Of a DNA stretch of 46,118 nt, positions 7,053-46,007 are shown piece after piece. How positions within the stretch are numbered: the stretch's first letter is position 1; each line of letters opens with the position of its first letter. A program made the translations under genes and the position numbers. The notes under the pieces were generated by a model that worked only from the letters and a program-made list of their open reading frames with translations, did not search any database and was not told where the DNA came from. Source of the stretch: an uncultured Verrucomicrobiota bacterium (lineage in GTDB: Bacteria > Verrucomicrobiota > Kiritimatiellia > CAIQIC01 > JAGNIJ01); assembly GCA_964617565.1 (NCBI GenBank), contig CAZTYH010000018.1, forward strand, positions 1 to 46,118, written 5' to 3'.

Positions 7053-7099
7053 AATTACATCTCCAATATGCGTCCGTATTCTAGAGGTTCCCGTACGGA

Positions 7100-9877: not shown

Positions 9878-10033
9878 AAGGGTCTCTGCGGGACGATGAA
9901 AAACGGGGTCATTGTAGGAATCGCCGGGACATTGTCACGCGCAAACCCCGGGCAACTGCTATTGCCGAAAACGCCTTTTCCGGTGTATATATATACTGTG
10001 CGGGGATGGGAGAGCCATACCTCGGGACAGGAG

Positions 10034-12943: not shown

Positions 12944-13053
12944 CGGCGCGTTCGACGGCAAGCCATCCGCCCCGCGAAGGTTTACAGCCCCCCTCTTCCT
13001 GCATATGATAGCCATGGGTGCGAGAGGTCTTCCAGGGAGTTTGGCGGGGAACA

Positions 13054-26503: not shown

Positions 26504-27076
26504 TCACCGCTCAATAACAGTCACATCATCCACCAGGAACGCCCCCTCCGCCGGCCCGGTTCCCTCAAACAGGTGGATACCGAATTTGGCCTGCGCCGCC
26601 CTCTCCGGAGCCTTGGCCCGCCGTATGATCACCTTGCGCCAGCCGACACGCGACAGGCTCGGTCCCCACTCCTCGCTCGAAACGCGCGCCACCTCGCGGC
26701 CCGCTTCGTTCAACCATTCGATCACAAGATGCCCGACCACATTGCCGCGCAAAGGCTGGCCGGAGTCGTTTCTCACGTACGCCTCAAAATCATATCTCCG
26801 TCCGGGAATCACATGGATAATCTGGAGCAGCCCCTGCCCGCTTTTCGGCGCGCGATGCACCTTCATCATCGCGCATTGTGAATCGTTACGGCCGTTGCCC
26901 TCAATCAATCCTCCGCGCTGCCGCTGGGTGGAATAGTGTTCCCATGCCGTCGGCAATTGTCCGGCGCCTTCCCGGGGATCTTCAAAGTCGCCGTTATGGA
27001 GCATGTTTCCGGCGGCCACCATCACGCCGGCCACGATGAAACAACCTGATGCAACCACTGCCCCCAAGGCTCTCAT
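26504..27076 (-). CDS. Small secreted stand-alone CBM-like (CBM4_9 / galactose-binding-like) protein; paralogue of 35575..36159
   Basis: 190 aa. MRALGAVVASGCFIVAGVMVAAG is a signal or anchor sequence. NMLHNGDFEDP...W is the typical opening of a CBM4_9-type sandwich. Shares VIEWLNEAGREVAR and FGIHLFEG...GAFLVDDVTV with the other small protein. Starts 34 bp downstream of the giant gene. Confidence 0.65.
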   Translation of the reverse strand: MRALGAVVASGCFIVAGVMVAAGNMLHNGDFEDPREGAGQLPTAWEHYSTQRQRGGLIEGNGRNDSQCAMMKVHRAPKSGQGLLQIIHVIPGRRYDFEAYVRNDSGQPLRGNVVGHLVIEWLNEAGREVARVSSEEWGPSLSRVGWRKVIIRRAKAPERAAQAKFGIHLFEGTGPAEGAFLVDDVTVIER

Positions 27077-27110
27077 GATGCTTCCGCCCCCTGCACTGAC
27101 GGAACAACCG

Positions 27111-30100
27111 CTACTCTACTTCCACGCGATAAAATGCGGCGCTGCCGGGCAACGACTCGGCATGCTGGTTCACCGGCGGCGTCGCGGGGATGCGCGCGCG
27201 AATCCTTTGAAACGGTGTTGCGGAGAAGAGATTCGTACCGCGCCAGACGCTGTAGGTCCTTCCTTCGACACTGTTCCATTCCAGTATCACATCCGTGCCG
27301 GATCCGGCCGTTCTTTCGCCCATGAAGAAAAATCCGGAATCCGGATCGAGCGGGCTTGAACCGGCATAAAGTTCCTGCGCGTCCGATACCCCATCGCCGT
27401 CCGAATCGGAATCCAAGTCCGTTCGCATTTGTGAAACATGACCGGTCACAACCCCGGAGGGCGTACTCAACAAGAACTCCCAGCGCGGCATGAAAGGCGA
27501 GGAATCCAGCTCCGGATCGTAAACAAGGCGCGCGACCTCAACGATCGTCCGGGTGGTTGAACTGATCAAGATCGCGTCGTCACACTTCAACGCGCCTTCT
27601 CCGGTAACACCCCCGCACCAGAGCGTGCAACGAACGGTCCTCGTGCCGGCGGGCGCGGTGCCATCCACGCGGAACAGGCGATAAACTTCGTCCACGCTCC
27701 CGGAGACCTCTGCGGTCACTTCTCCGAGCGGACTGCCCACGACATCAAGCCACTCCAGCTTTAATTCGATCGCCGATGCATTGAACCCCGCATCCCTCTG
27801 CAGCCATAACGCAAAGGTGTAAGGCTCTCCCGCCTGGCCTGCCGTGTAGTCCTGGTAGAAATAGCCGTGATCCGCAACCCACGACGCCACGGACATGGAC
27901 CACGATCCGGAGCGCGCGCCCCACGGGTATGACGTCGCGGCCATCCCGCAAGCCCAATACAACGGCACAAACTCAAAGCCTGGATTCAGCAACAGGTTTT
28001 CCGCCGGGATGCCCAGGCCGAGATCCTTGAACGCCAGCCATTTCGCTCCGTCATGGAAGACCGCCGGGTACATCGTGGATTCACTCACCCATGTCGCGCG
28101 TTGCAGAGCCCCGTGGGTCGAAAGTTTCAGGACATACAAGGTGCTGGCCGGACCCCGCACCCCTCCTGCCGCGAGGATGTACTCGCTGTCTCCCGCTCCC
28201 GCGTTCACCAGGTAATAATTCGTGTGTCCCACCTGATCGAACACCGACATGAACCCGTCATCGTCGCGCAAGGCGCCGGGCAAAATATTGAACAGGGCCG
28301 GTCCTGAATATTCCTCCCACTGCTTGTCGTTTGAGCCCGCATCCTTCTCTTCAAAAACGTTGCCATCGAGCAACGCAGACAGCTGACCGGCCAGAAGGGG
28401 ATCGGCCGCCGCCTCCGCATACAGAATGGTCGTGGCCGCCATCGCCTCTTCCGCCTGCGCGAGCGCTTCGGCCTCTCTCGGCGGCTCGGCAACCAACCAT
28501 CGCTTTCCATCGGCTTCCGACGGGGCGTACACCGAATTCATTTCCGACGCGGTGACATAGACATCGTAGCCCAGCCCCGCATGGCGAGGATCATTGAGCC
28601 ACACGCCGTAGATCGTAAAGACGTTGCCCGTCGTCACGCCGTATCCGCCGTCATACGGGGCCTTGTCCGTCTCGAAACCGCGGATCACCTTGTACGACCA
28701 GTTCGTGCCGCACAGAATATAGACGGGTGTCTTCTGCCCGCCGGGCGGCAGGTAATCCATCCAATACACTGTTTCCTTCAACGCTTCATCCAGGGTCCAA
28801 CGATAACGCGCGGAGAAGTAATATTGCGGCGGCGCATTGTAGTACATCCACGAAGCACAGCTCTGCGGTGTGATTTCTCCGTTGTGCTGCGCCGACTTTG
28901 TGTTGGCCGCATAGATCTGATCCTGCGACTGGGTGAATGAGGGACCGTTGAGATAACGCGCGATCATCCACGCCGACGCCACACCCGTGTAATTGGTTTG
29001 CTCCGCAACCGCGCGGGGAAATCCGTCCACGCCATTGGTATAAGCAAGGCGCAACACGTAACTGGTGACGTGGCCGGGATAGGAATTGGGGTCATTTGGA
29101 TCCGAGCCGGCAAGATATTCTTCCATGTTTGAATAATTGTCCCGGTCCGGATCGTCTTCCGGCTCCATGCACGTTTCACAGCCTCCATGCTGCAATTCCC
29201 AGGAATCCGGCAAACCGTCGTTATCCATATCGTAATCGTCGTCCATCGAATACACGCCGGCCTGCTCGATTTCCGTCAGCGCAGCACCATCGGCCCGCCG
29301 GACAACCAGCCGGACCTGTCCGCGCGCCGCATAATTTCTGAAGATGTACCAATCGCCGTCGGAAGGAATCGCGAAACGAGTGTGATCAATCAGTCGTCCC
29401 GCAGGCATCGAATACACGTTCGTAAGAGTGGTTGACCCATGGGCGGGAATATCCACGCTCAACCAGTTTGCCTCGAAATCGCCGCAAAGCCGATCCCCCT
29501 TGCGCGTGCGCTTACTCCAGCGGGCCGCCACGTGGGGCGATTCATCCCACCACCATGTATCTTCGCCATACTCCTGGAGCAACTGAATCCGCACATTGTC
29601 GAGAGCAGAGGCGGAGTCGTTCGAGATTGTAATTATCTGGATCACATCCTGTCCCGGGTTGTAGTGCGGCAACCCCTCTTTGTCCTTCATCGGCGCGAAT
29701 GGAAACTGCACATGCACCGAGACCGGTTGCGGCGTGGACCGAACGGCCTGGATACTGAATTCGCGTTGTGATGGAGAAACGAACCCGAGCGAAAGGATTC
29801 GCGACAGATCCACATCCGGAAAACTTGTCCACGGGATCGAAACCTGCTGCGCAAGCGAGATCACGCGTTCTACGAAGTTTGTCACGGGCAGCGAATTGGT
29901 CACCCCGTTGCCGTCCGCCACCCAAACCTGCAGGTTCGAGCCGTCGCGATTCATCGCCACCTGGAACGCGAGCACGTCGTGATCCGAAACATCCACCGGC
30001 TCGTCGCCTTCCCAGTAACCGCCGCGAATCCGGTTGGTAACGACCAACCCGGTATTCGTGCTCGTAACTTTTATGTCGTCGAAGAAGACATCCACATGGG

Positions 30101-33100
30101 CGCAGTCATGGCCTCCCACCCACAGCAGAAGCTGATCGGTTCCATCCACCGGCGCCACACGCTCGAAGTCCACATTCAGCCAGACCCCTGTGGCATACGA
30201 GCCGTCGAATTCCTGCCCATGCGCAGTCCGTCCGACCTCATTGGTGCTCTCCATCTTGATGCCGCAACGAAGCCAGTTGGTCCCGCCTTCGACCAGCTTG
30301 GCAATGAACAGGCGTCCCTGGACCCGGAGCGTTTCGCCTGAAACACAGGTGATTTGCTGCTGCAGATTGTTCCAGCTCCAGACATTGGTCTCGCCCTGAA
30401 CGGCCCAGGCCCCCCGCATCCGGGCCGAATAATCGCCCTCCCATGCGCGAAGGGTCGTGGCGTAAATATCCAGGTGATCCGCGCCGGAGGCCCAACCCAT
30501 CACGTCACCGGTCTCAAAGCCCATGTTCTCGCCAAGATGCCCATATTGATTGGTCACCACGGTGACATTGGTCGCGCCGTTGTTCGGAAAACCGAACACC
30601 GGGCCGACCTGCAATCGGCTGTCGGAAACATCAAAGCCGTACTTACCGCCGTCGCGGCGCTGAACTTCGGCCTTGATGTAATAAGAGCCCGGCGGCACGG
30701 CGGACACGTCCCAATCGTAAGCCACCTTGTGCGAATGAACGGGCACAAGAAGCAATTGCCCGTCATTGATCAACTTCCAGTCATTCGAACGGCCGTTCCC
30801 GTAATACAGGTTGGCATGGAGCGGCTCATCTTCGCCGTCGGTCGCTTGAAACTCGATCTGGTAAATCTGGTTACTCCAGTTGTTTCCCCCGTCGGGGGTA
30901 TTGGGCGCCAGGATCGTCACGCCCGGCGCAAAAACGCCACGATAGCGATACCGGGCATGCACGCGCTCGCCTTTCGCCAGGTTCTCATTCACCGGGCATG
31001 CGACCACGATGTTGTCGTTGATTTCAGAAATGGTGTTCTGCTCGAAGATGTCGAGCGAGAGGTCGCGGCCTCCGTCATTCAGCATCGTAATCTCAAACGT
31101 GCTGACCTTGCGGTAGGGCGCCTCCGTGCTGAATCCGTAGGACTGGTCTCCCCGGTCCTGCTGCATGATGTACATCACGTCGTTGCTGCGAAAACTGCTC
31201 AAACGCCGGTGATAAATATTCGTCGGCGGATTCATCGAATAATGCGTGATCCATTCACCGTCCGACTTGTTGAGCATGATCACATCGTGATCGTGCCCCT
31301 CGAAGCCTTCGTTGATCCCCATTCCGCCGCGCCAGAACATGTTCACCTGCGCGAAAACGTTCAGGGGACCATGCTCCTCGAGTACCACCGCGCGATTTGC
31401 GTAGATATCGTTCTCCACTTCGAAATAAGCGCCCTCGTCGGCCACCTGGTCCGGAGCGAAATGACCGTCGAAGCCGAGTACCCCGGTGAACCACTGGTTC
31501 GTCTTCGAGCGAACCGGCATGACGATCTTCACATAGCTGTCGTCCGGTGCGCCCCGGTTGGTCGGCGTCGTCCGCGACACCAGGCTCGCATAGGCCTCGG
31601 GGATGAGTGGCGCATCTTCCTTGTACTGGTGGATGCCGAAGATGTCCGCGGATACCGGCCGGAAGCTGCCGCCCATCACGCCGTCATAATCCGTCATGCG
31701 GAAATAGCCATTGCCGCGAATTTCGATGATGCCGGGAAACTTGGGCTCGCCGAACTCGTTGGTTCCGTACATGTGCCCGATCTTATATCCCACGAAGTAC
31801 GACGCCGGCCCCGGAATGAAGTCCGTGTAGTCATCCTCGAAAATGGACCGCACGCCGGATGCGGCATTGGGCCACGTGAAGAGATATTCTTCGTAGGAAC
31901 GGCGGCTCCATCGTCCATCGCGCCGCACGAACAGATCAATCGGCTCGATCGTCGCGCTGCCGCGCGGCACCTGCTGGATGAACCAATTGTCGCGATCCAG
32001 CAACCCATATTCCCACCCCGCGCGCAAGAAGACCTCGTTATGATCCTGGTATGTGCAATTCGGATAATCCACCATGCCGCGACTTTCCCCGTCCGTCGCC
32101 CATCCCATATGGATTTCCTGCGAGAGGAACGTAAGGTTCGTGTGTCCCGGCTCATTGCAGTTCACTGCGAGCTTCAGCGCTTTGACGTTGGAGGCGGCTC
32201 CGTTGGTCGCGACGGTGTGCAGGACGAAATACTTGTCGTACTCACGGTTGTATTCGCCGAGGTTTTCGTCGAATACGATATGCAGCGAGGTCGGCCACTG
32301 CCCGTCGTAATGCGTGACCAATCGCCTTGGCAACTGGCTCAGTGGCGAACCGACCACGTAAGTGTGGTGCGAACCGAAGGGCCCCTCGCCGAACTCCGCG
32401 CTGCTGTTGTCCCTGTCGCCCAGCACGAAGTATGGCTCGTTCGTATCAATCTCCACTGGCGCGCCGCGTAACGTGTGCCAGAGACGCGCGCAATAGATAT
32501 ACTGATCCAACTCCATCCATCCCGGCCCTTCGCCTCCCAACTCGTAAACCATGATGCTGTTGGTAATCGTGATCACCACATCGTTCGAGAATGCGCGAAA
32601 ACGCCAGCTCGCCGCCATGAGTTCAATGCTTGAAGGGTAAATGATCGGATTGGTCGAGCCGCCCGGATAACCATAGGCGTTCAGTCCCGGGTAGACGACG
32701 GGCGGGATGTCGTTTTCGTCCGGCGCGGCAGTAAGGGCCGCTGCTTCATCGCGCACGCGGTTGTACAACGATTCCACCGGCTGCGCATTGGCCGATACGC
32801 CGTCCAGCATTACCGCATCGTAGTAGATGTCCACTTCACTGCTTTTGTCATCGCCTCCGGAGTAGCCCGTGTACGTCAGTGTCAGCTTTGCATCTGTAAC
32901 GAGCCCCGTCGGGGAGTGATCACTGGAAATCTCGATGGCATCAAAGTAAATATCGGCAAGCGCCGAGCCCGACTGGACATCGCCGCAAACCATGGCGCGT
33001 AATTCGTACGTTGCCGAATTGGTGATGACGGCCATGAGCTTCATATCCAGCCACTGACCTTCAGGTGAAGTATTGTTGTAGGAATGCTCGAACGCGGAAT

Positions 33101-34301
33101 GAACGATGCCGGGGCCGGAGGGTGATTCCAGTTTCAGTCCTGCCACCACCCATCCCTTACTGCATTCCAGGTCGGCGATATACAGTTTACCTTTCGCACG
33201 AACCACGTCTCCCGATTTGAAGAAATAGCTCTGCGCAGCCTGATTCCAACTCCATCCGCTCCAGTTTCCGCTCATGCGAAGCGATCTTGTGCCGGCATAA
33301 GCCCGGGCGCTGGTCACCGTCGCGTTCAGATGGTCCGTACCAACAAACCAGCCCGTGGTATTGCCCGGCTCAAAACTGCCATTCTCGGCGTTCACGGGCT
33401 TCTTCTGCGCCCGCACGTCGTCGAAATACACTTCCGCGCTGGCCTGTCCGTTGCCGACATCACCGCACACCATGCAACGGAAGACGTAGAATCCGTCGTT
33501 AGTTACCGTGGTGGTGAATTCAAGCGTGGTCCAGCCAACGGTGCTGGTCGAAGCTTGATAAACGGATTCAATAAAGAAACCGGTCGCTTCATTTTCCAGC
33601 TTGATGCCCGCCACCGCCCAGCCGTCCGTCTTGGTGAACTCCTTCACATACACGCGCGCCTGGGCCCGCACGGTTTCGCCGCTCGTGAGCATCAGACCTT
33701 GTGAAGCATGGTTAAAGCTCCAGTTCGTCCAAACACCTGAGAATTTCGCCGCGTACTCACCCTCATCCACCGTCTCGTGCGAAAGCGCGATGTCGAGATC
33801 GTCCGCCCCCACCATCCAGTCTCTCAACGAGCCGGCTTCGAATCCGCCGTTCATGACGCCTGCGATGCCGCCGTAGATATTGAAGAACACCCAGCCCGGC
33901 TCCGGGTTTGTCCACACCTGCGAGGTGGACTCAAGCGGCCCTTCAAATTTCGCCTCCAGGCGGCCGGCCGCTTCAGCGCTCTCTGCGAGATGCGTCTTCC
34001 ACCAGACGAAACCGACCGCATTCACAACATCGCCGCCGTGCATGCTGAACGATTGGGATATCGAATTCGTGATCCAGCGGGCCGAGGAATAGGAACCCTG
34101 CATGCGGGCGGCATAGTTTCGATTGAACGTCTCATTGGTTGCCACCGAAAGGGCTATTCCGTCGCTACCTGCCACCCATCCGGAGAAATCACCCGTTTCG
34201 AAATCCGGGTTCTGAAGGGTTACAGCAGACGCATGAATAGAAGCAGATAGAAGCGATATCAGCAGCACGAGCACTAATCCACTGTTAGAGAGCGCTCTCA
34301 T
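27111..34301 (-). CDS. Giant (2396 aa) secreted multidomain protein: five CBM-like modules, an uncharacterised core, two TSP3-like repeat regions, a papain/C39-like region and a conserved C-terminal tail
   Basis: Signal peptide MRALSNSGLVLVLLISLLSASIHASA. CBM-like modules open with LQNPDFETGDFSGW, VMNGGFEAGSLRDW, AENGSFEPGNTTGW, GENMGFETGDVMGW and LLLNPGFEFVPLYW. The core carries LGDRDNSSAEF. Asp-rich DMDNDGLPDSWE...DPDRDNYSNMEEYLAGSDPNDPNS and DSDSDGDGVSDAQELYAGSSPLDPDS regions are present. Ends in AAFYRVEVE. The frame stays open with coherent domain grammar over 7.2 kb. Confidence 0.85.
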   Translation of the reverse strand: MRALSNSGLVLVLLISLLSASIHASAVTLQNPDFETGDFSGWVAGSDGIALSVATNETFNRNYAARMQGSYSSARWITNSISQSFSMHGGDVVNAVGFVWWKTHLAESAEAAGRLEAKFEGPLESTSQVWTNPEPGWVFFNIYGGIAGVMNGGFEAGSLRDWMVGADDLDIALSHETVDEGEYAAKFSGVWTNWSFNHASQGLMLTSGETVRAQARVYVKEFTKTDGWAVAGIKLENEATGFFIESVYQASTSTVGWTTLEFTTTVTNDGFYVFRCMVCGDVGNGQASAEVYFDDVRAQKKPVNAENGSFEPGNTTGWFVGTDHLNATVTSARAYAGTRSLRMSGNWSGWSWNQAAQSYFFKSGDVVRAKGKLYIADLECSKGWVVAGLKLESPSGPGIVHSAFEHSYNNTSPEGQWLDMKLMAVITNSATYELRAMVCGDVQSGSALADIYFDAIEISSDHSPTGLVTDAKLTLTYTGYSGGDDKSSEVDIYYDAVMLDGVSANAQPVESLYNRVRDEAAALTAAPDENDIPPVVYPGLNAYGYPGGSTNPIIYPSSIELMAASWRFRAFSNDVVITITNSIMVYELGGEGPGWMELDQYIYCARLWHTLRGAPVEIDTNEPYFVLGDRDNSSAEFGEGPFGSHHTYVVGSPLSQLPRRLVTHYDGQWPTSLHIVFDENLGEYNREYDKYFVLHTVATNGAASNVKALKLAVNCNEPGHTNLTFLSQEIHMGWATDGESRGMVDYPNCTYQDHNEVFLRAGWEYGLLDRDNWFIQQVPRGSATIEPIDLFVRRDGRWSRRSYEEYLFTWPNAASGVRSIFEDDYTDFIPGPASYFVGYKIGHMYGTNEFGEPKFPGIIEIRGNGYFRMTDYDGVMGGSFRPVSADIFGIHQYKEDAPLIPEAYASLVSRTTPTNRGAPDDSYVKIVMPVRSKTNQWFTGVLGFDGHFAPDQVADEGAYFEVENDIYANRAVVLEEHGPLNVFAQVNMFWRGGMGINEGFEGHDHDVIMLNKSDGEWITHYSMNPPTNIYHRRLSSFRSNDVMYIMQQDRGDQSYGFSTEAPYRKVSTFEITMLNDGGRDLSLDIFEQNTISEINDNIVVACPVNENLAKGERVHARYRYRGVFAPGVTILAPNTPDGGNNWSNQIYQIEFQATDGEDEPLHANLYYGNGRSNDWKLINDGQLLLVPVHSHKVAYDWDVSAVPPGSYYIKAEVQRRDGGKYGFDVSDSRLQVGPVFGFPNNGATNVTVVTNQYGHLGENMGFETGDVMGWASGADHLDIYATTLRAWEGDYSARMRGAWAVQGETNVWSWNNLQQQITCVSGETLRVQGRLFIAKLVEGGTNWLRCGIKMESTNEVGRTAHGQEFDGSYATGVWLNVDFERVAPVDGTDQLLLWVGGHDCAHVDVFFDDIKVTSTNTGLVVTNRIRGGYWEGDEPVDVSDHDVLAFQVAMNRDGSNLQVWVADGNGVTNSLPVTNFVERVISLAQQVSIPWTSFPDVDLSRILSLGFVSPSQREFSIQAVRSTPQPVSVHVQFPFAPMKDKEGLPHYNPGQDVIQIITISNDSASALDNVRIQLLQEYGEDTWWWDESPHVAARWSKRTRKGDRLCGDFEANWLSVDIPAHGSTTLTNVYSMPAGRLIDHTRFAIPSDGDWYIFRNYAARGQVRLVVRRADGAALTEIEQAGVYSMDDDYDMDNDGLPDSWELQHGGCETCMEPEDDPDRDNYSNMEEYLAGSDPNDPNSYPGHVTSYVLRLAYTNGVDGFPRAVAEQTNYTGVASAWMIARYLNGPSFTQSQDQIYAANTKSAQHNGEITPQSCASWMYYNAPPQYYFSARYRWTLDEALKETVYWMDYLPPGGQKTPVYILCGTNWSYKVIRGFETDKAPYDGGYGVTTGNVFTIYGVWLNDPRHAGLGYDVYVTASEMNSVYAPSEADGKRWLVAEPPREAEALAQAEEAMAATTILYAEAAADPLLAGQLSALLDGNVFEEKDAGSNDKQWEEYSGPALFNILPGALRDDDGFMSVFDQVGHTNYYLVNAGAGDSEYILAAGGVRGPASTLYVLKLSTHGALQRATWVSESTMYPAVFHDGAKWLAFKDLGLGIPAENLLLNPGFEFVPLYWACGMAATSYPWGARSGSWSMSVASWVADHGYFYQDYTAGQAGEPYTFALWLQRDAGFNASAIELKLEWLDVVGSPLGEVTAEVSGSVDEVYRLFRVDGTAPAGTRTVRCTLWCGGVTGEGALKCDDAILISSTTRTIVEVARLVYDPELDSSPFMPRWEFLLSTPSGVVTGHVSQMRTDLDSDSDGDGVSDAQELYAGSSPLDPDSGFFFMGERTAGSGTDVILEWNSVEGRTYSVWRGTNLFSATPFQRIRARIPATPPVNQHAESLPGSAAFYRVEVE
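34288..34299. promoter_or_regulatory. Perfect 12-bp palindrome GAGAGCGCTCTC abutting the start codon of giant gene 1
   Basis: Read directly. An identical element sits at the start of giant gene 2 (44591..44602), and both lie inside an identical 17-nt block. Its GAGCGCTC core matches the centre of the symmetric lac operator. Confidence 0.35.
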
Positions 34302-34323
34302 AAATAAACAACAACCCCCAGTA

Positions 34324-34345
34324 GCAACGAAACCGGTTTTGTTGC
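34324..34345. promoter_or_regulatory. Candidate LacI-family operator (22-bp near-perfect palindrome) in the divergent promoter region
   Basis: GCAACGAAACCGGTTTTGTTGC is a palindrome with one mismatched pair. A second AACCGGTT core lies at 34394..34408 (AATAACCGGTTTATT). Each is followed by TTGCTAAA(A)CC. Confidence 0.45.
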
Positions 34346-34504
34346 TAAAACCTATATCTTATTACTAAAACGATTGTCAACAAACAAAGTAAGAATAACC
34401 GGTTTATTGCTAAACCGCTTAAGGTTATGGCTTTGCTCTCCATTCGCCTCCGTGTAGTATGGAGGCCTGCACAGATGGGCAGTCGAGGACATCAAAGGAC
34501 TCCT

Positions 34505-35515: not shown

Positions 35516-35574
35516 CGGAAAATATCGAATTTTGAACGCTCAAGATTGAATGTTCGAAGTTTTCCCCGCTCTCC

Positions 35575-36159: not shown

Positions 36160-36204
36160 CCCCCGCCCCTCTCTGAGCGATGCTCAACAACCCCATTCTT
36201 CACA

Positions 36205-39200: not shown

Positions 39201-42200
39201 CGGCCAGCGTGTAGGCGCCCACGTTCGTCACGCCGTTCACAACCTCGTAGGAACGGACTCGATAGAACCACGTTCCGCCTTCGGTGGTCGGATGATGCGA
39301 GAACTGCATCAGCAGGTTGGTTGTGTAAAACGCGGTCGGATAACGGAAATCACCGTTGTCCGCTTCGAGGACCTGGTATCCTGTCACATTGGACGCGGCC
39401 AACCACGCGATCGTGAACTGTCCTTCCGCCGTGGGATAGCTGGCCGCCAGACCGGTTGGCGGCTCCGGCGCCTGCCACGGCGTGCCGCCCGCAAGATTGA
39501 GGTCGTCGAAGTATATCTCGCCGCCTTCGTCCGCCTGATTCGGAAACGGCAGGACGTGCACGACGGATACGTTGGTCGCGCCCTGTATCTCCGAGAAGTC
39601 CCACACGAGCTTCTCCCATTCGCCTTCGCCGGTGTAGGTTTGAACGCCGACATCCGCGTCGTCGAACTTCAGCAGGATAGGAATCCGGAACTCCGTCGGG
39701 CTCATGACCCATAGCTCAAGAAGATAGTTCCCATCCATGGCAAAGTCCGGATAGTTCCCGATGCGGCCAACAGGTGCGGTTTCTTCATCGTGGACGGGAA
39801 GGTATTGAATGCCTGAGTAATCCTTCAGCTTATTGGTCCAGACGAGCCTCAGGGAATGCTGACCGATATTCAGGCGGTTTCCGTTCGCGGGGCGTGTTAC
39901 GGGTATAATTTCTTTTCCGTATATATCCGCCGCGTACCAACCGAAGGCATCGGACTCGAACGCATCGAGCGGCGCGCTGTTGACGGCGCGCTGGAGCTGG
40001 ACATCGTCCATCCAGAACGTGCCGGAGTTGGTGCCGTCCCCCGGCGCCACCATGAAGATGATCTGTGAAACGGCGGTCAGATCAATGCTGTCCGCGCCGT
40101 ACGTGCGGCTTAAATCGAACGCCAGGTTTTCCCAATCGGCTTCCGGCGTCCTTGTTTCCGGCATAATTCCCGCCCAACCGGATTCGAAGAATCCGCCCGC
40201 GTTGTCCTCCAAGCGGATCAGGAACTTCAGCGGACTGCCGTCATTGTAAACCCAGAAGCTCAGGTAATCGTGATTCCTGAAGTTGAACAGGCCCGCAGCG
40301 GACATGAAGCTGAAGACATTGACATCGTTGTTCTTGTCGTAATCCACCTTCAGCGCCACGACCCCGGAATGCACATGCTGGGTACTGCCGAAATCGAGCG
40401 TGTAGGCAAATGGCGGCACCGGATCGTTTGCCCACCAGAACGAAACCTGTTCCTGTTCGTTTATGCCCCCATCAAATGTCTCCAGGTTTTCATATGCGAG
40501 TTGCGCAGCAGGCTGGTACTCGACCGTCACCGGTATGATCGCGGCATAACTGCTCTTGTTGGTTCCGACCACGGAACGCGCCCGATAGTAGTACGTGCCG
40601 GCTTCTGCAATCGGATCTTTGGTCACGGCCACGCGCGTCCCGTTGGTTCGCAGGACGGTAACGGAGCCGAAATTCTGATCTGCAGATTCTTCCACCTCAT
40701 ACTCATCCGCCCCAACGTCATCCCATCTGAAGTGGTAATGCCCGTCGCCGTCCGGGTTCTTCGCCGTTGTCCGGAAACGGCCCGGCGCGATCGGAATCGG
40801 GGCCGCGCGGCCGCCAAAGAGGTTCATGTCGTCCAGATACATCACGCCGCCGTCATCGGCCATGTTGGGATACGGGATGACGAATACCTGGGCCACGTTC
40901 GTCGCGCCGGACACATTCGAGTAATCCCAGACCAAACGCTGCCATTCGCCGGTGCCGCGATATGAAAGGACGCCGACATCCGCGTCGTCGAACTTCAACA
41001 GGATGGGCATGTTGGTTTCAGTCGGGCTGCTCACCCACAATTCGAGCAGATGGTTGTCATACAACGTGAAATCCTGATAGTTGCCGATACGCCCGGCCGG
41101 CGCATTGTCGCCATCATGACCTGGTTCATAGGTGAAGTTGTCGTAGCCCTGAGCCTTGGCGTCCCATGTCACCTTCAGCGAAGACTGCCCGAGCCCGAAC
41201 GGCAGCCCGTCGTTATGGAAGACCTCGTTGGTCAGGCTCAGGTTGGTGAAGGCGCCGCCGCCGGCCCATCCATACAAGTCCGACTCGAACGGCTCCAGCG
41301 GCGCGCTGTTCGGCGCGCGCCGCAGGACGATGTCGTCCACCCAGAACTCGCCGCTCGCGGTTTCGCTGCCGGGCTCGACCATGAACATGATCTGCCCGAT
41401 CTGTGTCATATCAATCTCGCCGTTCGCGTGGCCGAAGAACGAGCGCGTCAGGTCAATGCAGATGTTTTCCCAGTCGGCATTGGTCGTTACCGTTCGGGGG
41501 AAGATGTCCGCCCAATCCGTTTCCCATGCCTTGTTGTAGTCGCCGAACTGCTCAAAGCGCACCTTGATGCGCAGCGGCGTGCCGGTGTTGTAGACCCAGA
41601 AGGAGAGGTAGTCGAACGAGTGAAGATTGAAGAGCCCGGAGGCCGACATGAAGCTATACGCGTTCGTGAAAACCTCTCCCAGTTCGTTGGTCCGAACCTC
41701 GTTTGCCTTGTCGTACACCACCTTCATCGCGTAGTCGCCGGAGAACACGTGTTCCTGATTCCGGAAGTCCTGCTGATAGACCCATGGATCGGCCGGGTCG
41801 CTGCCCCACCAGGCGCTGATCGCGCCGCCGAACTCGAAATCGGCGAGGACCTCCACTTGCTCGACCGGCGGCGGCACGACCTGCGCCTTGATTGAAGCCG
41901 TGAAGCTTCCATATCCCGCGGCTGTCGAGGAACGCACGCGATAGAAGAAGGTGCCCTTCTCAACAAGCGGATTCTTTGCAAACGCAAAGAAAGGCGTGTT
42001 CGTGAACAGGCTGACCGGACTCCCGAAGTTGGGATCCGTATCTTCCTGCAGTTCGTACATGACAGCGCCAGGCACAGCGCTCCACGTTACCTCATACATT
42101 CCATCGTCATCCGGCTCCGCTGCGGTAGATGCAAGATTGAGCGGCGCGTATGGCACTTCCGGAATGGAGCCGCCGACGAGATTCAAATCGTCCAGATACA

Positions 42201-44604
42201 TCACACCGCCGTCGTCCGCCATGTTCGGATACGGAATAATGTAGAGCTTGGTGACGTTCTCGCGCCCCGGCACGGCGTCCATTTCCCATCGAACATTCTG
42301 CCACTCGCCCGCGCCGGTGTAGGTCTGCACCCCGACATCTGCCTCGTCGAACTTCAGCAGGATCGGGATGCTCGCGTCCGTCGGACTCTTGATGCGCATC
42401 TCGATCGTGTTGTTATCGTACAGCGCGAAGTTGGTGTAGTTGCCTATGCGGCCGGGCGGCGCGCTGTTCGTGTCGTGCGCCGGCTCGTAGGTGATATTCG
42501 AGAAGTTCTTCTCTTTCGGGCCCCACTCGATTATCAGCGAGCTTTGACCGAGCCCGAAAACACTGCCGTCGTTGAAGAATTCTTCGGTGGTGTTGGTGAT
42601 CGAAAACGGGGCGCCGGATGCCCAGCCGTAGAAATCTGATTCGAACACATCCAGCGGCGCGCTGTTGACCGAGCGGTGCAGCGCGATGTCGTCCATCCAG
42701 AACTCGCCCGTCGCGGTCTCGCTGCCCGGCTCGATCATGAACATGATTTGGCCGACTTGTGTTAGATCAATGTCGCCGACCGAATGACCGTAGAACGCGC
42801 GGGTCAGATCAATCGTAATGTTTTCCCAATCGGCGGCGCCGGTTTCCATGCGGGGAAAGATCGCCGCCCAGTCTGTTTCCCATGCCTTTTCAAAGTTCCC
42901 GAGTTGCTCCAACCGAACCTTGATCCGCAGCGGCGAGCCGTTGTTGTAAACCCAGAACGAAAGGTAATCGAAGTTCAGGAAGTTGTAGTGGCCGCTCGCG
43001 GAGAAGAAGCTGTAGGCATTGGTTGCGCCGCTCGGTGTCTGCTCGTTTGCCTTGTTGTAGACCACGTGCATGGAATGCTGACCCGAAAGCACGTGCTCCG
43101 TGCTCTTGAAATTCTGCTGGTAAACCCATGGGTCGTCCGGGTCGCTGCCCCACCAGGCGAGCACCTGGCCGGGCGAGTCGAAATCGGCAATCACATCGCG
43201 CGCGCGCGCCGCTTCGGGGAACTGGTGAACGCGAACGCGAAGCGGGGCCGTGAAAGTGCCCGCGACGTTGCTCACCATGGAGGCCACGCGATAATAGTAG
43301 GTCCCACCGGAGGCCGCGGGATCCATGGAGATATTCATGGACGTTCCCGTCGTGGAGATGCGGGTGTAATTGGTGAAATTGACGCTTGTATCCCAGTCGA
43401 AAACGTAATTCGTGGCACCGGCGACCTTGGTCCACTGGATGGTGAACTGGCCGTCTTCATCCGGTGTTCCGGCGTTAGACCAGAAGCTCGTGGGAGCCAG
43501 AGGGAGCACCGTACCTGTGCCGCCGGATAATGCGATATTGTCTATGTACATCGTCCCGCCGTTGTCGGCCATATTCGGATAAGGAAAGAGCCATACCGTT
43601 TCGAGCTTGGAAGCGATGGCGGCCTGCGCCGAGAAGTTCCACGACAACTTCTGCCAAGTCCCTGCCCCCGTGTAGTTCACCGTGTTCACATCCGACGTAC
43701 CGGCGCTGCCTGTGAATTTCAACAGGATGGGGAAGTTATTGTCCGTCGTACTTTTGACCCACACATCAAACGTGTTGTTTCCATACGTCGTAAAATTTGT
43801 GTAGCGACCGACCCGATGCAGCGGGGCGTTGGTGTCATGCTGGGGCGTGTACGTGAAGTTGTCATAGTTGGCGCTCTTGTTCGTCCACGTGATCCGGAGT
43901 GATTGTTGACCGAGATCCGTCGGACTGCCGCTGTTCTGGAAATGCTGAACCGAAAGCCCCATGTTCGTGAACACGCCGCCACCCGACCATCCGTAGAAGT
44001 CACTCTCAAAGGGTTCCAGAGGCGCACCGTTCGGCGCACGCGTGAGCGCGATATCATCCAGCCAGAAGCTTCCACGATTGGTGACATCGCCGGGCGAGAC
44101 CATGAACATGATGTTACGGATCGCTTTCCAATTCACGCTCGTGGCGGAGAATCCACGCGTGAGATCCACGACGAGGTTTTCCCAGTCGGCGCCGGGCGTC
44201 TTCATCGCAGGCCAGATGTCCGCCCAATCGGTCTCCCACGGATTACCGGCATCGTCTTCCAGGCGGACCTTGACGTGAAGCGGAGTTCCCGTGTTGTACA
44301 CCCAGAAAGAAAGGTAGTCGAAGTTACTGAAATTGAATTGTCCGCTTGCAGACAGAAAGCTGAATGGACTTTCCGAGTCGTTCCGCTTTTCGAAATCAAT
44401 CTTCAGGGAGAACTCGCCAGAGTGAACGTGTTGAGTATTCGCAAAGCCGAGGGTATAGACAAAAGGAGGAACGGAATCAGCCCCCCACCATGCCGCGACG
44501 AGGGATGAACCATCGAAGTTTTCGATGATCTCCTCCGAGCCGTAAGCCGGACTGACAATCAGGACAACCGCGACGAAAGCGAGGACAACAGAGAGCGCTC
44601 TCAT
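36205..44604 (-). CDS. Giant (2799 aa) secreted multidomain protein: four tandem repeats of about 445 aa (two CBM-like sandwiches plus one FN3-like domain each), an uncharacterised core, two CBM6-like modules, a cadherin-like domain, TSP3-like repeats and a conserved C-terminal tail
   Basis: Signal peptide MRALSVVLAFVAVVLIVSPAYG. The repeat blocks FDYLSFWVYN, ADWEN, FWxDDI, PILLKF and PYPNMADxGG recur four times. The core carries IGNLDGSSAEF. The CBM6-like pair are ...GGWNDFDMLP...GWHTIRIVV...MDMDEFKLV and ...HSWDSFTNSQ...GSHTFAFRC...LDLDEFELY. NRAPQFF...ILAFDPDGDDITIS is cadherin-like. DWDGDGLPDVWEW...DDDPDGDGAPNWFEY is TSP3-like. Ends in IRYYRVKAGTP. Confidence 0.85.
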   Translation of the reverse strand: MRALSVVLAFVAVVLIVSPAYGSEEIIENFDGSSLVAAWWGADSVPPFVYTLGFANTQHVHSGEFSLKIDFEKRNDSESPFSFLSASGQFNFSNFDYLSFWVYNTGTPLHVKVRLEDDAGNPWETDWADIWPAMKTPGADWENLVVDLTRGFSATSVNWKAIRNIMFMVSPGDVTNRGSFWLDDIALTRAPNGAPLEPFESDFYGWSGGGVFTNMGLSVQHFQNSGSPTDLGQQSLRITWTNKSANYDNFTYTPQHDTNAPLHRVGRYTNFTTYGNNTFDVWVKSTTDNNFPILLKFTGSAGTSDVNTVNYTGAGTWQKLSWNFSAQAAIASKLETVWLFPYPNMADNGGTMYIDNIALSGGTGTVLPLAPTSFWSNAGTPDEDGQFTIQWTKVAGATNYVFDWDTSVNFTNYTRISTTGTSMNISMDPAASGGTYYYRVASMVSNVAGTFTAPLRVRVHQFPEAARARDVIADFDSPGQVLAWWGSDPDDPWVYQQNFKSTEHVLSGQHSMHVVYNKANEQTPSGATNAYSFFSASGHYNFLNFDYLSFWVYNNGSPLRIKVRLEQLGNFEKAWETDWAAIFPRMETGAADWENITIDLTRAFYGHSVGDIDLTQVGQIMFMIEPGSETATGEFWMDDIALHRSVNSAPLDVFESDFYGWASGAPFSITNTTEEFFNDGSVFGLGQSSLIIEWGPKEKNFSNITYEPAHDTNSAPPGRIGNYTNFALYDNNTIEMRIKSPTDASIPILLKFDEADVGVQTYTGAGEWQNVRWEMDAVPGRENVTKLYIIPYPNMADDGGVMYLDDLNLVGGSIPEVPYAPLNLASTAAEPDDDGMYEVTWSAVPGAVMYELQEDTDPNFGSPVSLFTNTPFFAFAKNPLVEKGTFFYRVRSSTAAGYGSFTASIKAQVVPPPVEQVEVLADFEFGGAISAWWGSDPADPWVYQQDFRNQEHVFSGDYAMKVVYDKANEVRTNELGEVFTNAYSFMSASGLFNLHSFDYLSFWVYNTGTPLRIKVRFEQFGDYNKAWETDWADIFPRTVTTNADWENICIDLTRSFFGHANGEIDMTQIGQIMFMVEPGSETASGEFWVDDIVLRRAPNSAPLEPFESDLYGWAGGGAFTNLSLTNEVFHNDGLPFGLGQSSLKVTWDAKAQGYDNFTYEPGHDGDNAPAGRIGNYQDFTLYDNHLLELWVSSPTETNMPILLKFDDADVGVLSYRGTGEWQRLVWDYSNVSGATNVAQVFVIPYPNMADDGGVMYLDDMNLFGGRAAPIPIAPGRFRTTAKNPDGDGHYHFRWDDVGADEYEVEESADQNFGSVTVLRTNGTRVAVTKDPIAEAGTYYYRARSVVGTNKSSYAAIIPVTVEYQPAAQLAYENLETFDGGINEQEQVSFWWANDPVPPFAYTLDFGSTQHVHSGVVALKVDYDKNNDVNVFSFMSAAGLFNFRNHDYLSFWVYNDGSPLKFLIRLEDNAGGFFESGWAGIMPETRTPEADWENLAFDLSRTYGADSIDLTAVSQIIFMVAPGDGTNSGTFWMDDVQLQRAVNSAPLDAFESDAFGWYAADIYGKEIIPVTRPANGNRLNIGQHSLRLVWTNKLKDYSGIQYLPVHDEETAPVGRIGNYPDFAMDGNYLLELWVMSPTEFRIPILLKFDDADVGVQTYTGEGEWEKLVWDFSEIQGATNVSVVHVLPFPNQADEGGEIYFDDLNLAGGTPWQAPEPPTGLAASYPTAEGQFTIAWLAASNVTGYQVLEADNGDFRYPTAFYTTNLLMQFSHHPTTEGGTWFYRVRSYEVVNGVTNVGAYTLAVSVYVPSLSSQQGWIEERSYDTLCAEMDNINVPLWHTNTSAFRVTVTHPAYYPSSINERGHDFDDCDFADRTIWKIGNLDGSSAEFKQSGYGEGDVHYTLDHPPAGIDEPWSEFPAELDTSVMSNQYIVFTAFEPEDVNLVHLIGSRLMVAMREVTGTLDLRVSIGNGTDWLVLTNQVEWRDGRWQPTSNHVFNAQNLVRHWQTPDFFWSEETDMSTIRLEVVPSEQGGETTPGAHADYDALQLTKRDEAGEMAPKELIDVPWWHVGPSFATLYEDGNVIVEAIHIDFWWRAPAAMTVITPQGSATDVHYFRIVKRVPDTNTMEYSQVFVMYEDGNVRLLPHPPKGVDWTPFGASVIVGPTVESDRPFAAIDTVTVNPKDLSMDIVYKNGGSCRMDLWVDREQNVVDVTDIRYDTTTNSFTRFRSMWVFDGKADIDRVETADGVFPIQRHWNELHGTWWKFFKEVTTYHNTYCPEFAFEITDPIKAFLVRQAETLDEGIGYTKVIRTGGRGNEAISFGLDGGEATFHVYLDRGRPDTHMIIRYADDDGGNNGDYPGNLVQVYIDDELIGQAYGMNTGGWNDFDMLPNIPLGDLLPGWHTIRIVVGPGTFGMDMDEFKLVSHPKKYWVRESILVRQGEDYDSASNIVDAVRSGAVGGQSIHMEQTNSTAYYQVTLSAPATQVYMRVRYSDDVGPTMLKIYMDETLKARFPTLSTHSWDSFTNSQEIYIGNLTAGSHTFAFRCSEETWGLDLDEFELYTKRQQNRAPQFFMEPQYDVPIESITDIRILAFDPDGDDITISAVTIPPSSGFNGRYLTVTTTVADAGTSNMAAFTCDDGQGTTNSTASGSTWIIVPTDWDGDGLPDVWEWMNFQALEYGADDDPDGDGAPNWFEYQASTSPTNSESALMTTAASPKPAEGDAYLVTVKTEPGRKYTLWITDGMLGPTTTWRTFNDTSNGVGTWVETNVVSAKYTFVDDFSAGTSGGKPQDGIRYYRVKAGTP
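39166..44535 (-). repeat. Intragenic tandem array: four diverged coding repeats of about 1.33 kb (approx. 43195..44535, 41851..43194, 40489..41850, 39166..40488)
   Basis: Boundaries come from my residue count of the protein (aa 24-470, 471-918, 919-1372, 1373-1813). The repeats are diverged at both the DNA and protein level, so the duplication is not recent. Confidence 0.8.
44591..44602. promoter_or_regulatory. Perfect 12-bp palindrome GAGAGCGCTCTC overlapping the start codon of giant gene 2
   Basis: Read directly. Plus-strand 44590..44606, AGAGAGCGCTCTCATAA, is identical to 34287..34303. Confidence 0.35.
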
Positions 44605-44646
44605 AATCGGACCCTTTCATACAACTTGCCGATCGGACTCAATAGT

Positions 44647-44743
44647 ATCAGAGGTGTGTGCCGAATGCAGTGCTGAACGGTGAATACCTGAGAGAGAGAG
44701 GGGTATATGCACCAAGCTCGTCTCCGACACACACCTCTATGAT
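44647..44743 (-). other. 97-nt imperfect hairpin in the 5' leader or promoter region of giant gene 2 (candidate structured leader or ncRNA)
   Basis: The outer stem ATCAGAGGTGTGTG (44647-44660) pairs with CACACACCTCT-A-TGAT (44728-44743). In RNA it is extendable by G-U pairs. The inner hairpin pairs GGTGAATACC with GGTATATGCACC. The apical loop is a (GA)6 tract, CU-rich on the minus-strand transcript. Confidence 0.35.
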
Positions 44744-44990
44744 CTTCATAAGGACATAATGCACACGTGAATCCCGTTTGTCAACACGTGAACATAGAAA
44801 AATTCGCAGAATGAATATTTTGTATCATTCGTGAGAATTAAGCTGTGATTCAGGATCTGATTCGGCTTAGCACGGCTAAATTTTATGCTGCTCTTTTCGC
44901 ACAAGGCACTCCCTTGAGGAAATCCGGATCTTTCTATTTCACTAATAATGAGTTGCACGTGTGCATCAGTGTATGTACAGTTCGGGCCTT

Positions 44991-46007
44991 ATGAGCCAGA
45001 GGGTGACAATCAAGGATGTTGCAAGAAGCGCAGGCGTCACGCACACGACTGTTTCAAGAGTGATTCACAACGACTCGCGCATCAGCGAAGGCACACGGCA
45101 GCGAGTCCTTACCGCGATGAAAAGCCTGGACTATCAACCCAACCTCATCGCGCGAGGACTCATCAACAACCGGACCCAGGCGGTCGCGATGATAACGCCG
45201 GACCTCGACACCTTCGCCCTGCCGGTTGTCAAATCCGTTGCCGAATCCTGCGCCACCCGGCAATACGCGCTACTTCTTTATTCCGCCAACACGTGGCGCC
45301 GGGAAAATCTTTCGTTCGAATGGATCGCCCGGAATTGGCTTGTGGACGGCACGCTGATCTACAACCTGATCTACCACGACCGTGTGCCGCCCGAAATTAT
45401 TGACCTCCGCAACCGCCGCCTCCCCTTCGTGTTCATCAACAAGTTCATCAACGAACCCGACTTGAACGCCGTGGGCACAGACAATCATCACGCCGTGAAA
45501 CTCGTGTTGGACCATCTGCTGGCAACGGGCCGCAAGCGCATCGGCTGGCTCAACGGCGATACGACTTCCGTTGACGGCATGGAACGTTTCCTCGCGTTTC
45601 GCACGGAGATCGAGCGGGCCGGACTGCACTATGACGCGCGCTTCACCGGCTGCGGCCTGTGGCGTGACACCGACGCCTTCAACGAGACAATGCGCATCTG
45701 CAGCGGAGATGAAAAGCCCGACGCGATTTTTTGCGCCAACGATCTCATGGCCATCGGTGCCATCAAGGCCATTCATCAGCTCGGGATGAAAGTGCCGGAC
45801 GATATCGCCGTAGCGGGCATTGACGATAACGAGATCAGTCGGCTCCTTGAGCCTCAATTGACCACAGTGAAAATGCCGCTCGAGGAAGTGGGATCCGCCG
45901 CAACGGATCTGCTCATGAAAGTCATCCAGGAACCGGACCGCCCACCCGAGCAAATAGCCCTCCAAAGCAAGCTCATCGTCCGCGCCTCGACCAAAAACCC
46001 CCGATAG
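44991..46007 (+). CDS. LacI/GalR-family transcriptional regulator
   Basis: [57 protein letters not shown] is the canonical HTH and hinge. The sugar-binding domain shows [17 protein letters not shown] and [12 protein letters not shown]. The ORF-track start at 44961 adds 10 residues. Confidence 0.85.

Follow-up and report, generated by a model that had tools for sequence, protein, structure and literature searches.

What is the role of two adjacent three-gene sets, each made up of a LacI-type regulator gene, a divergently transcribed gene for a giant secreted protein and a gene for a small protein resembling a carbohydrate-binding module (CBM), in an uncultured Verrucomicrobiota bacterium of the Kiritimatiellia, and is one set a copy of the other? 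The genes lie on a stretch of 46,118 nucleotides (GenBank assembly GCA_964617565.1, contig CAZTYH010000018.1, forward strand), which is called the window in the following. A first-pass annotation, made from the sequence alone, had taken them for a duplicated module. Its six open reading frames (ORFs), with their strands and the spacing between giant and small genes, were confirmed:

26504-27076, minus strand: small1, ORF with translation of 190 amino acids (aa), a secreted stand-alone CBM_4_9-like protein.
27111-34301, minus strand: giant1, 2396 aa, a secreted multi-domain protein.
34505-35515, plus strand: LacI1, 336 aa, a LacI-family regulator divergent from giant1 (start of the longest ORF at 34427).
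35575-36159, minus strand: small2, 194 aa, a secreted stand-alone CBM_4_9-like protein.
36205-44604, minus strand: giant2, 2799 aa, a secreted protein.
44991-46007, plus strand: LacI2, 338 aa, a LacI-family regulator divergent from giant2 (start of the longest ORF at 44961).

The small genes follow downstream of the giant genes after 34 bp (giant1 to small1) and 45 bp (giant2 to small2). Inspection of these two gaps revealed neither promoter-like nor terminator-like sites, and the ATG of small1 as well as that of small2 is preceded by a purine-rich, G-rich stretch of the ribosome-binding type. From the short gaps lacking such sites, each giant gene is presumably co-transcribed with its small gene.

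We read the region as two adjacent, independent LacI-gated polysaccharide-utilisation operons, in which giant1 would be a GH186-like enzyme and the small protein an accessory, and assign this reading a probability of roughly 60%. In the proposed mechanism the divergently transcribed LacI-family repressor would bind two to three palindromic sites in the shared promoter region, LacI1 at AAACCGGTTT-type and LacI2 at TGCACACGTG-type sites, and would be released by a cytoplasmic oligosaccharide effector. The operon would then express a huge Sec-exported carbohydrate-active protein together with the co-transcribed small secreted CBM_4_9-like protein. Giant1 would act as the enzyme, with a GH186 core amid five CBM_4_9-type modules and Ca-binding TSP3 linkers, D1004 as general base and D1096 as general acid. 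Fold, conserved residues and gene association would make beta-1,2-glucan or a closely related beta-glucan its most likely substrate. In giant2 four binding-type repeats would be joined to a C-terminal cassette.

An indication of enzymatic function comes from the core of giant1, three positions of which are given here:

30552-32924, minus strand: conserved core of giant1 (aa 460-1250), a D-N-S-S-A-E-F subdomain plus an OpgG/OpgD (GH186)-like two-domain fold.
31290-31292, minus strand: codon of D1004, aligned with D300 of Escherichia coli OpgD (EcOpgD), the proposed general base; invariant alignment column D545.
31014-31016, minus strand: codon of D1096, aligned with D388 of EcOpgD, the general acid; in an invariant E-I-N-D-N motif.

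In an alignment of 39 sequences the core is by far the most conserved segment, with 49-66% identity for most family members (85% for one close relative, 33% for one outlier) and dozens of invariant D, E, H, R, W and Y residues. Modelled with AlphaFold2, aa 460-1250 reached a predicted local distance difference test score (pLDDT) of 83 and a predicted template modelling score (pTM) of 0.82. When this model was compared with the Protein Data Bank (PDB) by Foldseek, the top nine matches were all OpgG or OpgD proteins (E. coli OpgG, E. coli OpgD/MdoD, Xanthomonas OpgD), with E values of 5.8e-24 to 1.6e-20 and template modelling (TM) scores of 0.53-0.59 on the target over about 525 columns, and the tenth match had an E value of only 1e-4. 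The Pfam family MdoG (PF04349) matched the core alone with 28.6 bits (cutoff 25), a match limited to positions 248-363 of the 478 in the profile. EcOpgD, an endo-beta-1,2-glucanase of the inverting type, has D388 for its general acid and D300 for its general base, the latter acting via a water chain, and E385, Y356 and R359 support catalysis (PMC10514313). By profile alignment with hidden Markov models (HMMs), D300, Y356, E385 and D388 of EcOpgD correspond to D1004, Y1063, E1093 and D1096 of giant1 (the chain numbering is offset by one), all four of which are invariant in the 39-sequence alignment. This mapping of catalytic residues is likely, not certain. The first-pass annotation had seen no recognisable glycoside hydrolase genes, a statement that does not hold for the giant1 core with its GH186 fold and conserved catalytic residues. 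The core is very probably homologous to GH186 and folded like it, and its catalytic competence is somewhat more probable than not.

Giant1 has 42 homologues of 1475-2910 aa. Its modules are arranged in the order signal peptide, three CBM_4_9-like modules, a subdomain like domain III of polysaccharide lyase family 4 (PL4-III), the GH186-like core, an inserted CBM, a conserved 310-aa region, TSP3, an unknown 350-aa region, a further CBM, TSP3 and a C-terminal sandwich. Across the homologues the core (aa ~465-1246) and aa 1429-1740, with TSP3 at their end, are always present, while the inserted CBM (aa 1255-1428), whose profile also matches the xylanase CBM structure 4xup/4xuo, is optional. The sandwiches opening N-x-x-F-E-x-G...W, which had been described for both giants, are of the CBM_4_9 type and are confined to giant1, where they open five times (aa 31, 151, 307, 1259 and 2106); the four ~450-aa repeats of giant2 are of another, unassigned kind. 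That the giants are secreted, CBM-rich and carbohydrate-related proteins was borne out.

The region of about 350 aa (aa 1748-2100; window 28002-29060, minus strand) is conserved and has no Pfam or PDB match; it is also found at the C-terminus of other giants preceding small genes (L009, L037, L134; related loci and homologous proteins are cited here by L and P numbers). A papain-like peptidase, suspected from the sequence of this region, found no Pfam or PDB support. PDB sequence and NCBIfam searches with both giants yielded nothing useful. Upstream of giant1 homologues in L006 and L007 lie exosortase (EpsH) genes and a weak VPDSG-CTERM match; the giants of the window carry no PEP-CTERM-type tail.

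The regulators proved to be LacI-family proteins as annotated. Pfam PF00356 matches LacI1 and LacI2 with 61.6 and 73.2 bits and PF13377 with 102 and 119 bits; LacI1 combines the LacI helix-turn-helix with Peripla_BP_1/3/4 domains, and LacI helix-turn-helix and Peripla_BP domains are present in LacI2 as well. Conserved palindromes were found in both divergent promoter regions:

34322-34347: candidate LacI1 operator 1, a 26-bp palindrome TAGCAACGAAACC/GGTTTTGTTGCTA with the centre AAACCGGTTT and 13-nt arms that are 92% complementary.
34393-34412: candidate LacI1 operator 2, a second AACCGGTTT site (AGAATAACCGGTTTATTGCT) in the giant1/LacI1 divergent region.
44764-44790: candidate LacI2 operators, two CACGTG-core sites, TGCACACGTGAA and CAACACGTGAAC, in the giant2/LacI2 divergent region.
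44952-44965: a third near-palindrome with a CACGTG core, TTGCACGTGTGCA, just upstream of where LacI2 begins.

Only two AACCGGTT sites exist in the 46-kb window. A pair of AACCGGTT(T) sites, spaced by 66-67 bp, lies between the divergent genes of every LacI1-type locus compared (window, L050, L134); in the window the first of the pair forms the middle of the 26-bp palindrome. Two or three TGCACACGTG-type sites are present in the LacI2-type loci (window, L007, L063), whichever giant lies downstream, and none in the LacI1-type loci. Hence the type of motif co-varies with the type of LacI in six loci. Giant1 orthologues are partnered by a LacI1-type regulator in some genomes and by a LacI2-type regulator in others, and the motif goes with the regulator, not with the giant. 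Because the motif tracks the LacI type across genomes, which is good comparative evidence, we regard the candidate sites as putative operators and the giants as probably LacI-controlled; gating by LacI at the predicted sites appears likely.

Five loci with a full-length giant1 orthologue were examined (window, L007, L050, L134 and L135), and each of them keeps the arrangement of divergent LacI gene, giant gene and downstream small gene. Counting both kinds of giant, it recurs in independent genomes (L007, L050, L063, L134, L135) and is therefore more than chance. In L063 a LacI2-type gene is followed by a 2314-aa giant2-type protein and two small genes, with a free-standing cassette gene next door. 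Three other architectures of giant1 homologues, P0010 (2553 aa), P0024 (1660 aa) and P0034 (1565 aa), come without LacI and small gene. Cassette-type genes lie a few genes downstream of the giant1 orthologues in L007/L061. In L061 the small gene and the cassette-type gene are separated by four genes (5323-9884, plus strand), apparently two pairs (284 + 434 aa and 284 + 453 aa), which have no Pfam match beyond a sub-threshold DUF7253.

Small-family loci were fetched from species-representative genomes and metagenomes by a degenerate DNA pattern encoding G-x-[LIVMF]-x-[IV]-E-W-x-[DN]-x-x-G-x-E-x-x-R, which samples about one third of the family; chance matches in unrelated phyla were removed with the family HMM. 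Neighbours were counted in about 50 non-redundant loci with a stand-alone small gene (47 from the ORF/HMM pipeline, with L007, L048 and L087 added by hand). The true small-family loci come from metagenome-assembled genomes (MAGs), mostly of Verrucomicrobiota/Kiritimatiellae, with single Lentisphaerae, Phycisphaera and Acidobacteriota records. LacI genes, not giants, are the most frequent of the neighbours identified: in at least 18 of the approximately 50 loci a LacI gene, almost always of the LacI1 type, lies no more than three genes away (13 of 28 among loci of at least 5 kb). Two to four small genes stand in tandem in at least 15 loci, a pseudopilin gene (N_methyl/DUF1559) is near the small gene in 10 and a GH144-like protein in 6, and a protein of at least 1000 aa directly adjoins it in about 5. 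The LacI1 subtype is the one that accompanies small genes in most related loci (L013, L014, L031, L035, L038, L048, L050, L057, L058, L085-L087, L116, L117, L134), while orthologue-level matches of LacI2 are found in L007, L063 and L135 (E 1e-124 to 1e-142).

A recurrent operon consists, in this order, of a LacI1-type gene, one to four small genes, a pseudopilin gene and genes for a GH144-like (GH144/GH189-like) enzyme and a solute-binding protein; it is most complete in L058, L057 and L087 and partial in L041, L115 and L035. In L035 and L058 the small and LacI1-type genes share operons with proteins of about 870-1040 aa carrying PF10091 and DUF3131. The L058 enzyme matches the GH144 endo-beta-1,2-glucanase 5gzh (E 1.5e-42) and XCC2207 (8xul, E 6e-71), and also the transglycosylation domain of cyclic beta-1,2-glucan synthase (8wy1, 8rf9). 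In clan GH-S the characterised enzymes of GH144, GH162 and GH192-194 are beta-1,2-glucanases without exception, and GH189, a related family, is a beta-1,2-glucanotransferase (PMC12102758). Furthermore, the metagenomic protein P0042 (2582 aa, European Nucleotide Archive) fuses a giant1-type core (MdoG at aa 832-953) to cadherin/Big_9 repeats and a GH144-like PF10091 domain (aa ~2186-2295). Mainly because two unrelated families of beta-1,2-glucan-acting enzymes fill the same slot in the same gene grammar, we propose beta-1,2-glucan as the substrate class. Specificity of giant1 itself for this glucan, for which fold, conserved residues and gene association speak, remains a tentative proposal with slightly less than even odds.

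As the first-pass annotation had it, the small proteins are paralogues (38% identity, E 7e-42) and CBM-like. In the small family 37 of 65 members match Pfam CBM_4_9 (PF02018) at E <0.01 (best 5.3e-11); small1 and small2 score 21.2 and 23.6 bits and stay below the cutoff of 25.9. Small1 matches the family HMM at E 1e-65. With a three-sequence profile, an exhaustive HMMER search yielded 430 representatives (50% identity clusters) at E <1e-3 and 220 at E <1e-10, nearly all of them stand-alone proteins of 185-230 aa, and all members looked up were named only 'hypothetical protein'. Invariant residues are W49, W150, P161, G182 and D187, the consensus includes an IEW...G.E..R motif, and among solved structures the closest is a distantly related CBM (4d0q, E 1.4e-3). 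The family HMM matches the CBM modules of the giants only marginally, and the idea that the small proteins are detached copies of these modules was rejected. Small-family genes often form head-to-tail arrays of two to four copies (L068, L058, L012, L041, L045, L052 and L063, among others), with four copies in 3.5 kb in L068.

The small protein had been described as a dedicated partner of the giant, which the counts do not support: it belongs to the locus type, not to the giant, and goes with LacI more faithfully than with any enzyme. It would be a general accessory that may bind a glycan or oligosaccharide outside the cytoplasm; we consider the chances of glycan binding to be evenly balanced. 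In a Phycisphaera MAG (L048, 1468-3174, minus strand) one ORF of 568 aa, uninterrupted by a stop codon, encodes a LacI1-type regulator together with a small-family domain. Either the fusion is genuine, in which case it would speak for the domain having a regulatory and cytoplasmic role, or the ORF results from an assembly error.

Giant2 consists of a signal peptide, four repeats of about 450 aa and a C-terminal cassette of about 1000 aa:

39169-44529, minus strand: repeats 1-4 of giant2 (aa 26-1812), 45-58% identical pairwise.
36208-39168, minus strand: C-terminal cassette of giant2 (aa 1813-2799), beginning with a PL4-domain-III-like sandwich and ending with TSP3 and a C-terminal sandwich.

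To judge from the protein sequence, each repeat contains two unassigned sandwich-like stretches, opening F-D/E...WWG and then FESDxxGW, and an Fn3-like module. For repeat 1 Pfam gave no match even when E values up to 10 were allowed, and aa 382-454 gave a marginal PDB sequence match to an Fn3-like protein (E 0.053). The cassette is composed of the PL4-III-like sandwich with D-G-S-S-A-E-F, a beta domain (aa ~2069-2294), two CBM6/35-like domains, an Ig-like domain, TSP3 and the C-terminal sandwich. It has 38 homologues, mostly free-standing proteins of 680-1280 aa (commonly 945-1170). The AlphaFold2 model of the cassette is all-beta (pLDDT 87). Its beta domain of about 220 aa is strongly conserved, with invariant D289, W291, R426-S-M-W429, D436 and H471-N-T (cassette numbering). 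Foldseek recognised a CBM6-type fold (1uy0_A, TM 0.82 on the target, root mean square deviation 2.2, 132 columns), and in the cassette family PF03422 is matched by 14 and PF18099 by 11 of 39 sequences, whereas giant2 itself has no Pfam match there. The PL4 domain III family PF14683, a CBM-like jelly roll, matches 7 of the 39 sequences; in the cassette homologue P0216 the match covers residues 47-204, the N-terminal part with the D-x-S-S-A-E-F region (28 bits, cutoff 27). The search with the whole cassette model gave only multi-sandwich and CBM matches with a global TM of at most 0.15, and a profile search of the cassette against the PDB found nothing. Giant2 either serves to capture glycans or is an enzyme from a family not yet recognised.

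Several observations speak against two polysaccharide-utilisation operons with giant1 as a GH186-like enzyme. The giant1 core is only 14-16% identical to the solved GH186 proteins, full-length giant1 scores 24.6 bits with Pfam MdoG, just below the gathering score of 25 bits, the profile alignment with EcOpgD is weak (E 0.16), and the position of EcOpgD R359 is ambiguous in the giant1 family, where R or K stands one or two positions off. Given this low identity and weak residue alignment, substrate specificity could differ. For giant2 no catalytic domain was found by Pfam, NCBIfam, PDB sequence or profile searches or by whole-model fold search. Many small-family loci contain no LacI or carbohydrate-active enzyme (CAZyme) gene within the sequence available. 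Finally, no genes for GH144, pseudopilin, ABC importer/transporter or beta-1,2-oligoglucan phosphorylase are present in the window, so that for this genome the beta-1,2 assignment is based on the fold and on gene association seen elsewhere.

With giant2 lacking a recognisable catalytic domain, both giants might be non-catalytic surface proteins for glycan capture or adhesion, with the small CBM-like protein as dedicated partner or adaptor. In essence this is how the first-pass annotation had read the genes. CBM-type and Ig/Fn3-type sandwiches, TSP3 linkers and the shared C-terminal sandwich indeed dominate both proteins, and E. coli OpgG has very low activity although its catalytic residues are kept (PMC10514313). 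Nevertheless, it is the giant1 core that is most conserved, with invariant acidic residues at the GH186 catalytic positions, a core of this type occurs fused to a GH144-like domain (P0042), and the small gene is not giant-specific. We consider pure capture unlikely.

Giant1 could also be biosynthetic: like the proteobacterial OpgG/OpgD proteins, including Xanthomonas OpgD, it would remodel beta-1,2-glucan made by the cell itself, or close it into rings, in the periplasm or extracellularly. In the parts of the literature consulted, the characterised GH186 members all act in osmoregulated periplasmic or cyclic glucan biosynthesis, as small periplasmic proteobacterial proteins (PMC10514313), and some database sources label homologues 'glucan biosynthesis protein'. 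On the other hand, four points are in better agreement with nutrient acquisition: neither the window nor the related loci examined contain an OpgH-type glucosyltransferase, control is by a LacI-type repressor, giant1 has five CBM modules and a secretion-type architecture, and the same gene grammar holds GH144/GH189-like enzymes beside a solute-binding protein. A biosynthetic role thus seems quite improbable, and LacI control without an opgH partner suggests a catabolic one rather than a part in periplasmic-glucan biosynthesis.

Gene order and orientation are identical twice in succession and the small proteins are clear paralogues, as would be expected after a recent tandem segmental duplication of the three-gene module, with the giant later replaced or diverged. 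In a segmental duplication all corresponding genes are paralogous; here the cores of the giants are unrelated, and the two LacI genes come from distinct, old subfamilies whose operators differ. LacI1 and LacI2 are 29% identical (E 9e-45), each is closer to counterparts in other genomes (E 1e-124 to 1e-216), and each has its own operator motif. Giant1 and giant2 are not homologous overall (best BLASTP E 0.009), and a comparison of their family alignments by profile found only the TSP3 linker in common (hhalign 97%). A possible kinship of the conserved giant2 beta domain with the GH186 domain or other giant1 regions was rejected (hhalign probability at most 1.2%). The pairing of giant1 orthologues with either LacI type points to modular shuffling of old parts. 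Moreover, the side-by-side layout already exists in L134, where a giant and a small gene are followed by LacI, a giant1 orthologue (57% identical to giant1), a small gene and a cassette-type gene. A recent duplication is hence very unlikely, and we keep to two independent operons.

The 'same parts list' attributed to the giants holds for accessory parts but not for the cores. Both have an MRALS signal peptide, TSP3 and a C-terminal sandwich ending FYRV or YYRV, and share the D-x-S-S-A-E-F subdomain (giant1 aa 631, giant2 aa 1881; hhalign of sub-alignments 93.9%, E 1.5e-7, 55 columns). The C-terminal module of TSP3 and small sandwich with terminal F/Y-Y/F-R-V/I is common to both giants and a further window protein and may be a lineage-specific module for surface anchoring or export. 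The further protein (13018-15294, plus strand, 758 aa) has DUF11, NIDO-like and TSP3 domains, and its C-terminal module ends FFRI.

The rest of the window is ordinary chromosomal DNA encoding ZnuA, Fur, NikR, GlgB, GH94, 6-phosphogluconate dehydrogenase, a ChlI/ComM-type ATPase and an SNF2 helicase. Homologues come from Kiritimatiellae/Verrucomicrobiota MAGs. A 781-kb contig (L002) carries a locus 97.3% identical to that of the window. Identity between the two drops to 86-93% at 34076-36576, over LacI1, small2 and the 3' end of giant2, and is about 99% elsewhere; a second stretch, within part of the giant2 repeats (41576-42576), has 91-94%. Such low-identity stretches suggest a patch of local recombination or diversification. 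The GH94 gene (7100-9877, minus strand) is directly adjacent to GlgB (4842-7052, minus strand). Its product is closely related to laminaribiose phosphorylase (6ggy, E 8e-260), a homology which rules out its assignment as a beta-1,2-oligoglucan phosphorylase, and it lends the beta-1,2 theme no support. In L062 (once more beside GlgB) and in L135, too, a GH94 gene lies near genes of the giant or cassette type.

How do these loci relate to known systems? Compared with OpgG/OpgD (MdoG; PDB 1txk, 8ip1, 8ip2, 8x18), giant1 shares the two-domain beta-sandwich fold, a match of its core to part of the MdoG profile, the putative acid and base aspartates and the counterparts of E385 and Y356. It differs in that the domain is part of a secreted protein of 2396 aa that also carries five CBM modules, TSP3 linkers and further domains, and in that the protein belongs to Kiritimatiellia/Verrucomicrobiota instead of Proteobacteria, under predicted LacI control and without an opgH partner. 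As for the GH144-type beta-1,2-glucan clusters (SGL; Chitinophaga 5gzh; clan GH-S), related loci of PVC (Planctomycetes-Verrucomicrobia-Chlamydiae) bacteria put the small family and the LacI1 subtype beside GH144/GH189-like enzymes and a solute-binding protein, whereas the window has no GH144, transporter or phosphorylase genes. A term search of the part of the beta-1,2-glucan literature that was available found neither stand-alone CBM_4_9-like genes in one to four copies nor a pseudopilin gene.

With Gram-positive-type and Bacteroidota polysaccharide-utilisation loci the window shares the logic of a sugar-responsive regulator beside secreted multi-CBM CAZymes and glycan-binding accessories. 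No TonB-dependent receptor or SusD domain was detected by Pfam in any window ORF scanned, so that the SusC/SusD pair which marks a Bacteroidota-type locus is missing, and the absence of SusC/D and ABC importer genes from the window that had been reported before is correct. Unlike in Bacteroidota, the accessory is a single CBM-like protein of about 190 aa and the enzymes would be single giant polypeptides. CBM_4_9 (the CAZy CBM4/9/16/22-type jelly rolls) is matched by the N-x-x-F-E-x-G modules of giant1 and by 37 of 65 members of the small family, but the small proteins are free-standing and secreted and form a conserved family of their own with a weak match to the CBM modules of the giants. 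Likeness to PL4 is confined to domain III, in the N-terminal part of the cassette and in the subdomain shared with giant1 (hhalign 94%); there is no PL4 catalytic domain I, and the window proteins themselves stay below Pfam significance.

The first-pass annotation knew of no described system of this architecture. The exact gene grammar was indeed not found in the literature searched, where publications on Kiritimatiellota, LacI, CBM, DUF1559 and glycoside hydrolases gave no description of such a locus type. The parts are nevertheless of known kinds (LacI, GH186 fold, CBM4/9, CBM6/35, PL4-III and TSP3 modules) and follow the logic of a polysaccharide-utilisation locus. The literature searched does not describe a clade of giant secreted GH186-like proteins outside Proteobacteria, the family of stand-alone CBM-like proteins and its LacI/pseudopilin/GH144 operon, the family of free-standing cassettes or the predicted operators. 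The window loci look like an undescribed variant of the LacI-controlled polysaccharide-utilisation locus in PVC bacteria, not like a wholly new system or category.

A more far-reaching idea, which we think improbable as a whole, is that small CBM_4_9-like proteins, LacI1-type regulator and pseudopilin are the conserved heart of an undescribed PVC-specific apparatus for glycan capture or uptake, possibly based on a pilus or a type II secretion system and specialised in beta-1,2-glucan. GH144/GH189-like, giant GH186-like and cassette enzymes would be interchangeable in it, and a new CAZyme family would have its catalytic module in the giant2 beta domain (aa ~2069-2294). If this were true, the apparatus would be a functional analogue of the SusD/surface glycan-binding protein systems.

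Beta-1,2-glucans are bacterial polymers of symbiosis, virulence and osmoprotection. Our data suggest that uncultured PVC bacteria harvest them with a type of enzyme so far tied to biosynthesis. They also bring forward three unannotated families, namely the stand-alone CBM-like proteins (at least 220 clusters at 50% identity), the all-beta cassette of 1000 residues and a LacI subtype with a simple predicted operator, and illustrate how genes for polysaccharide utilisation may be organised in Gram-negative bacteria other than Bacteroidota.

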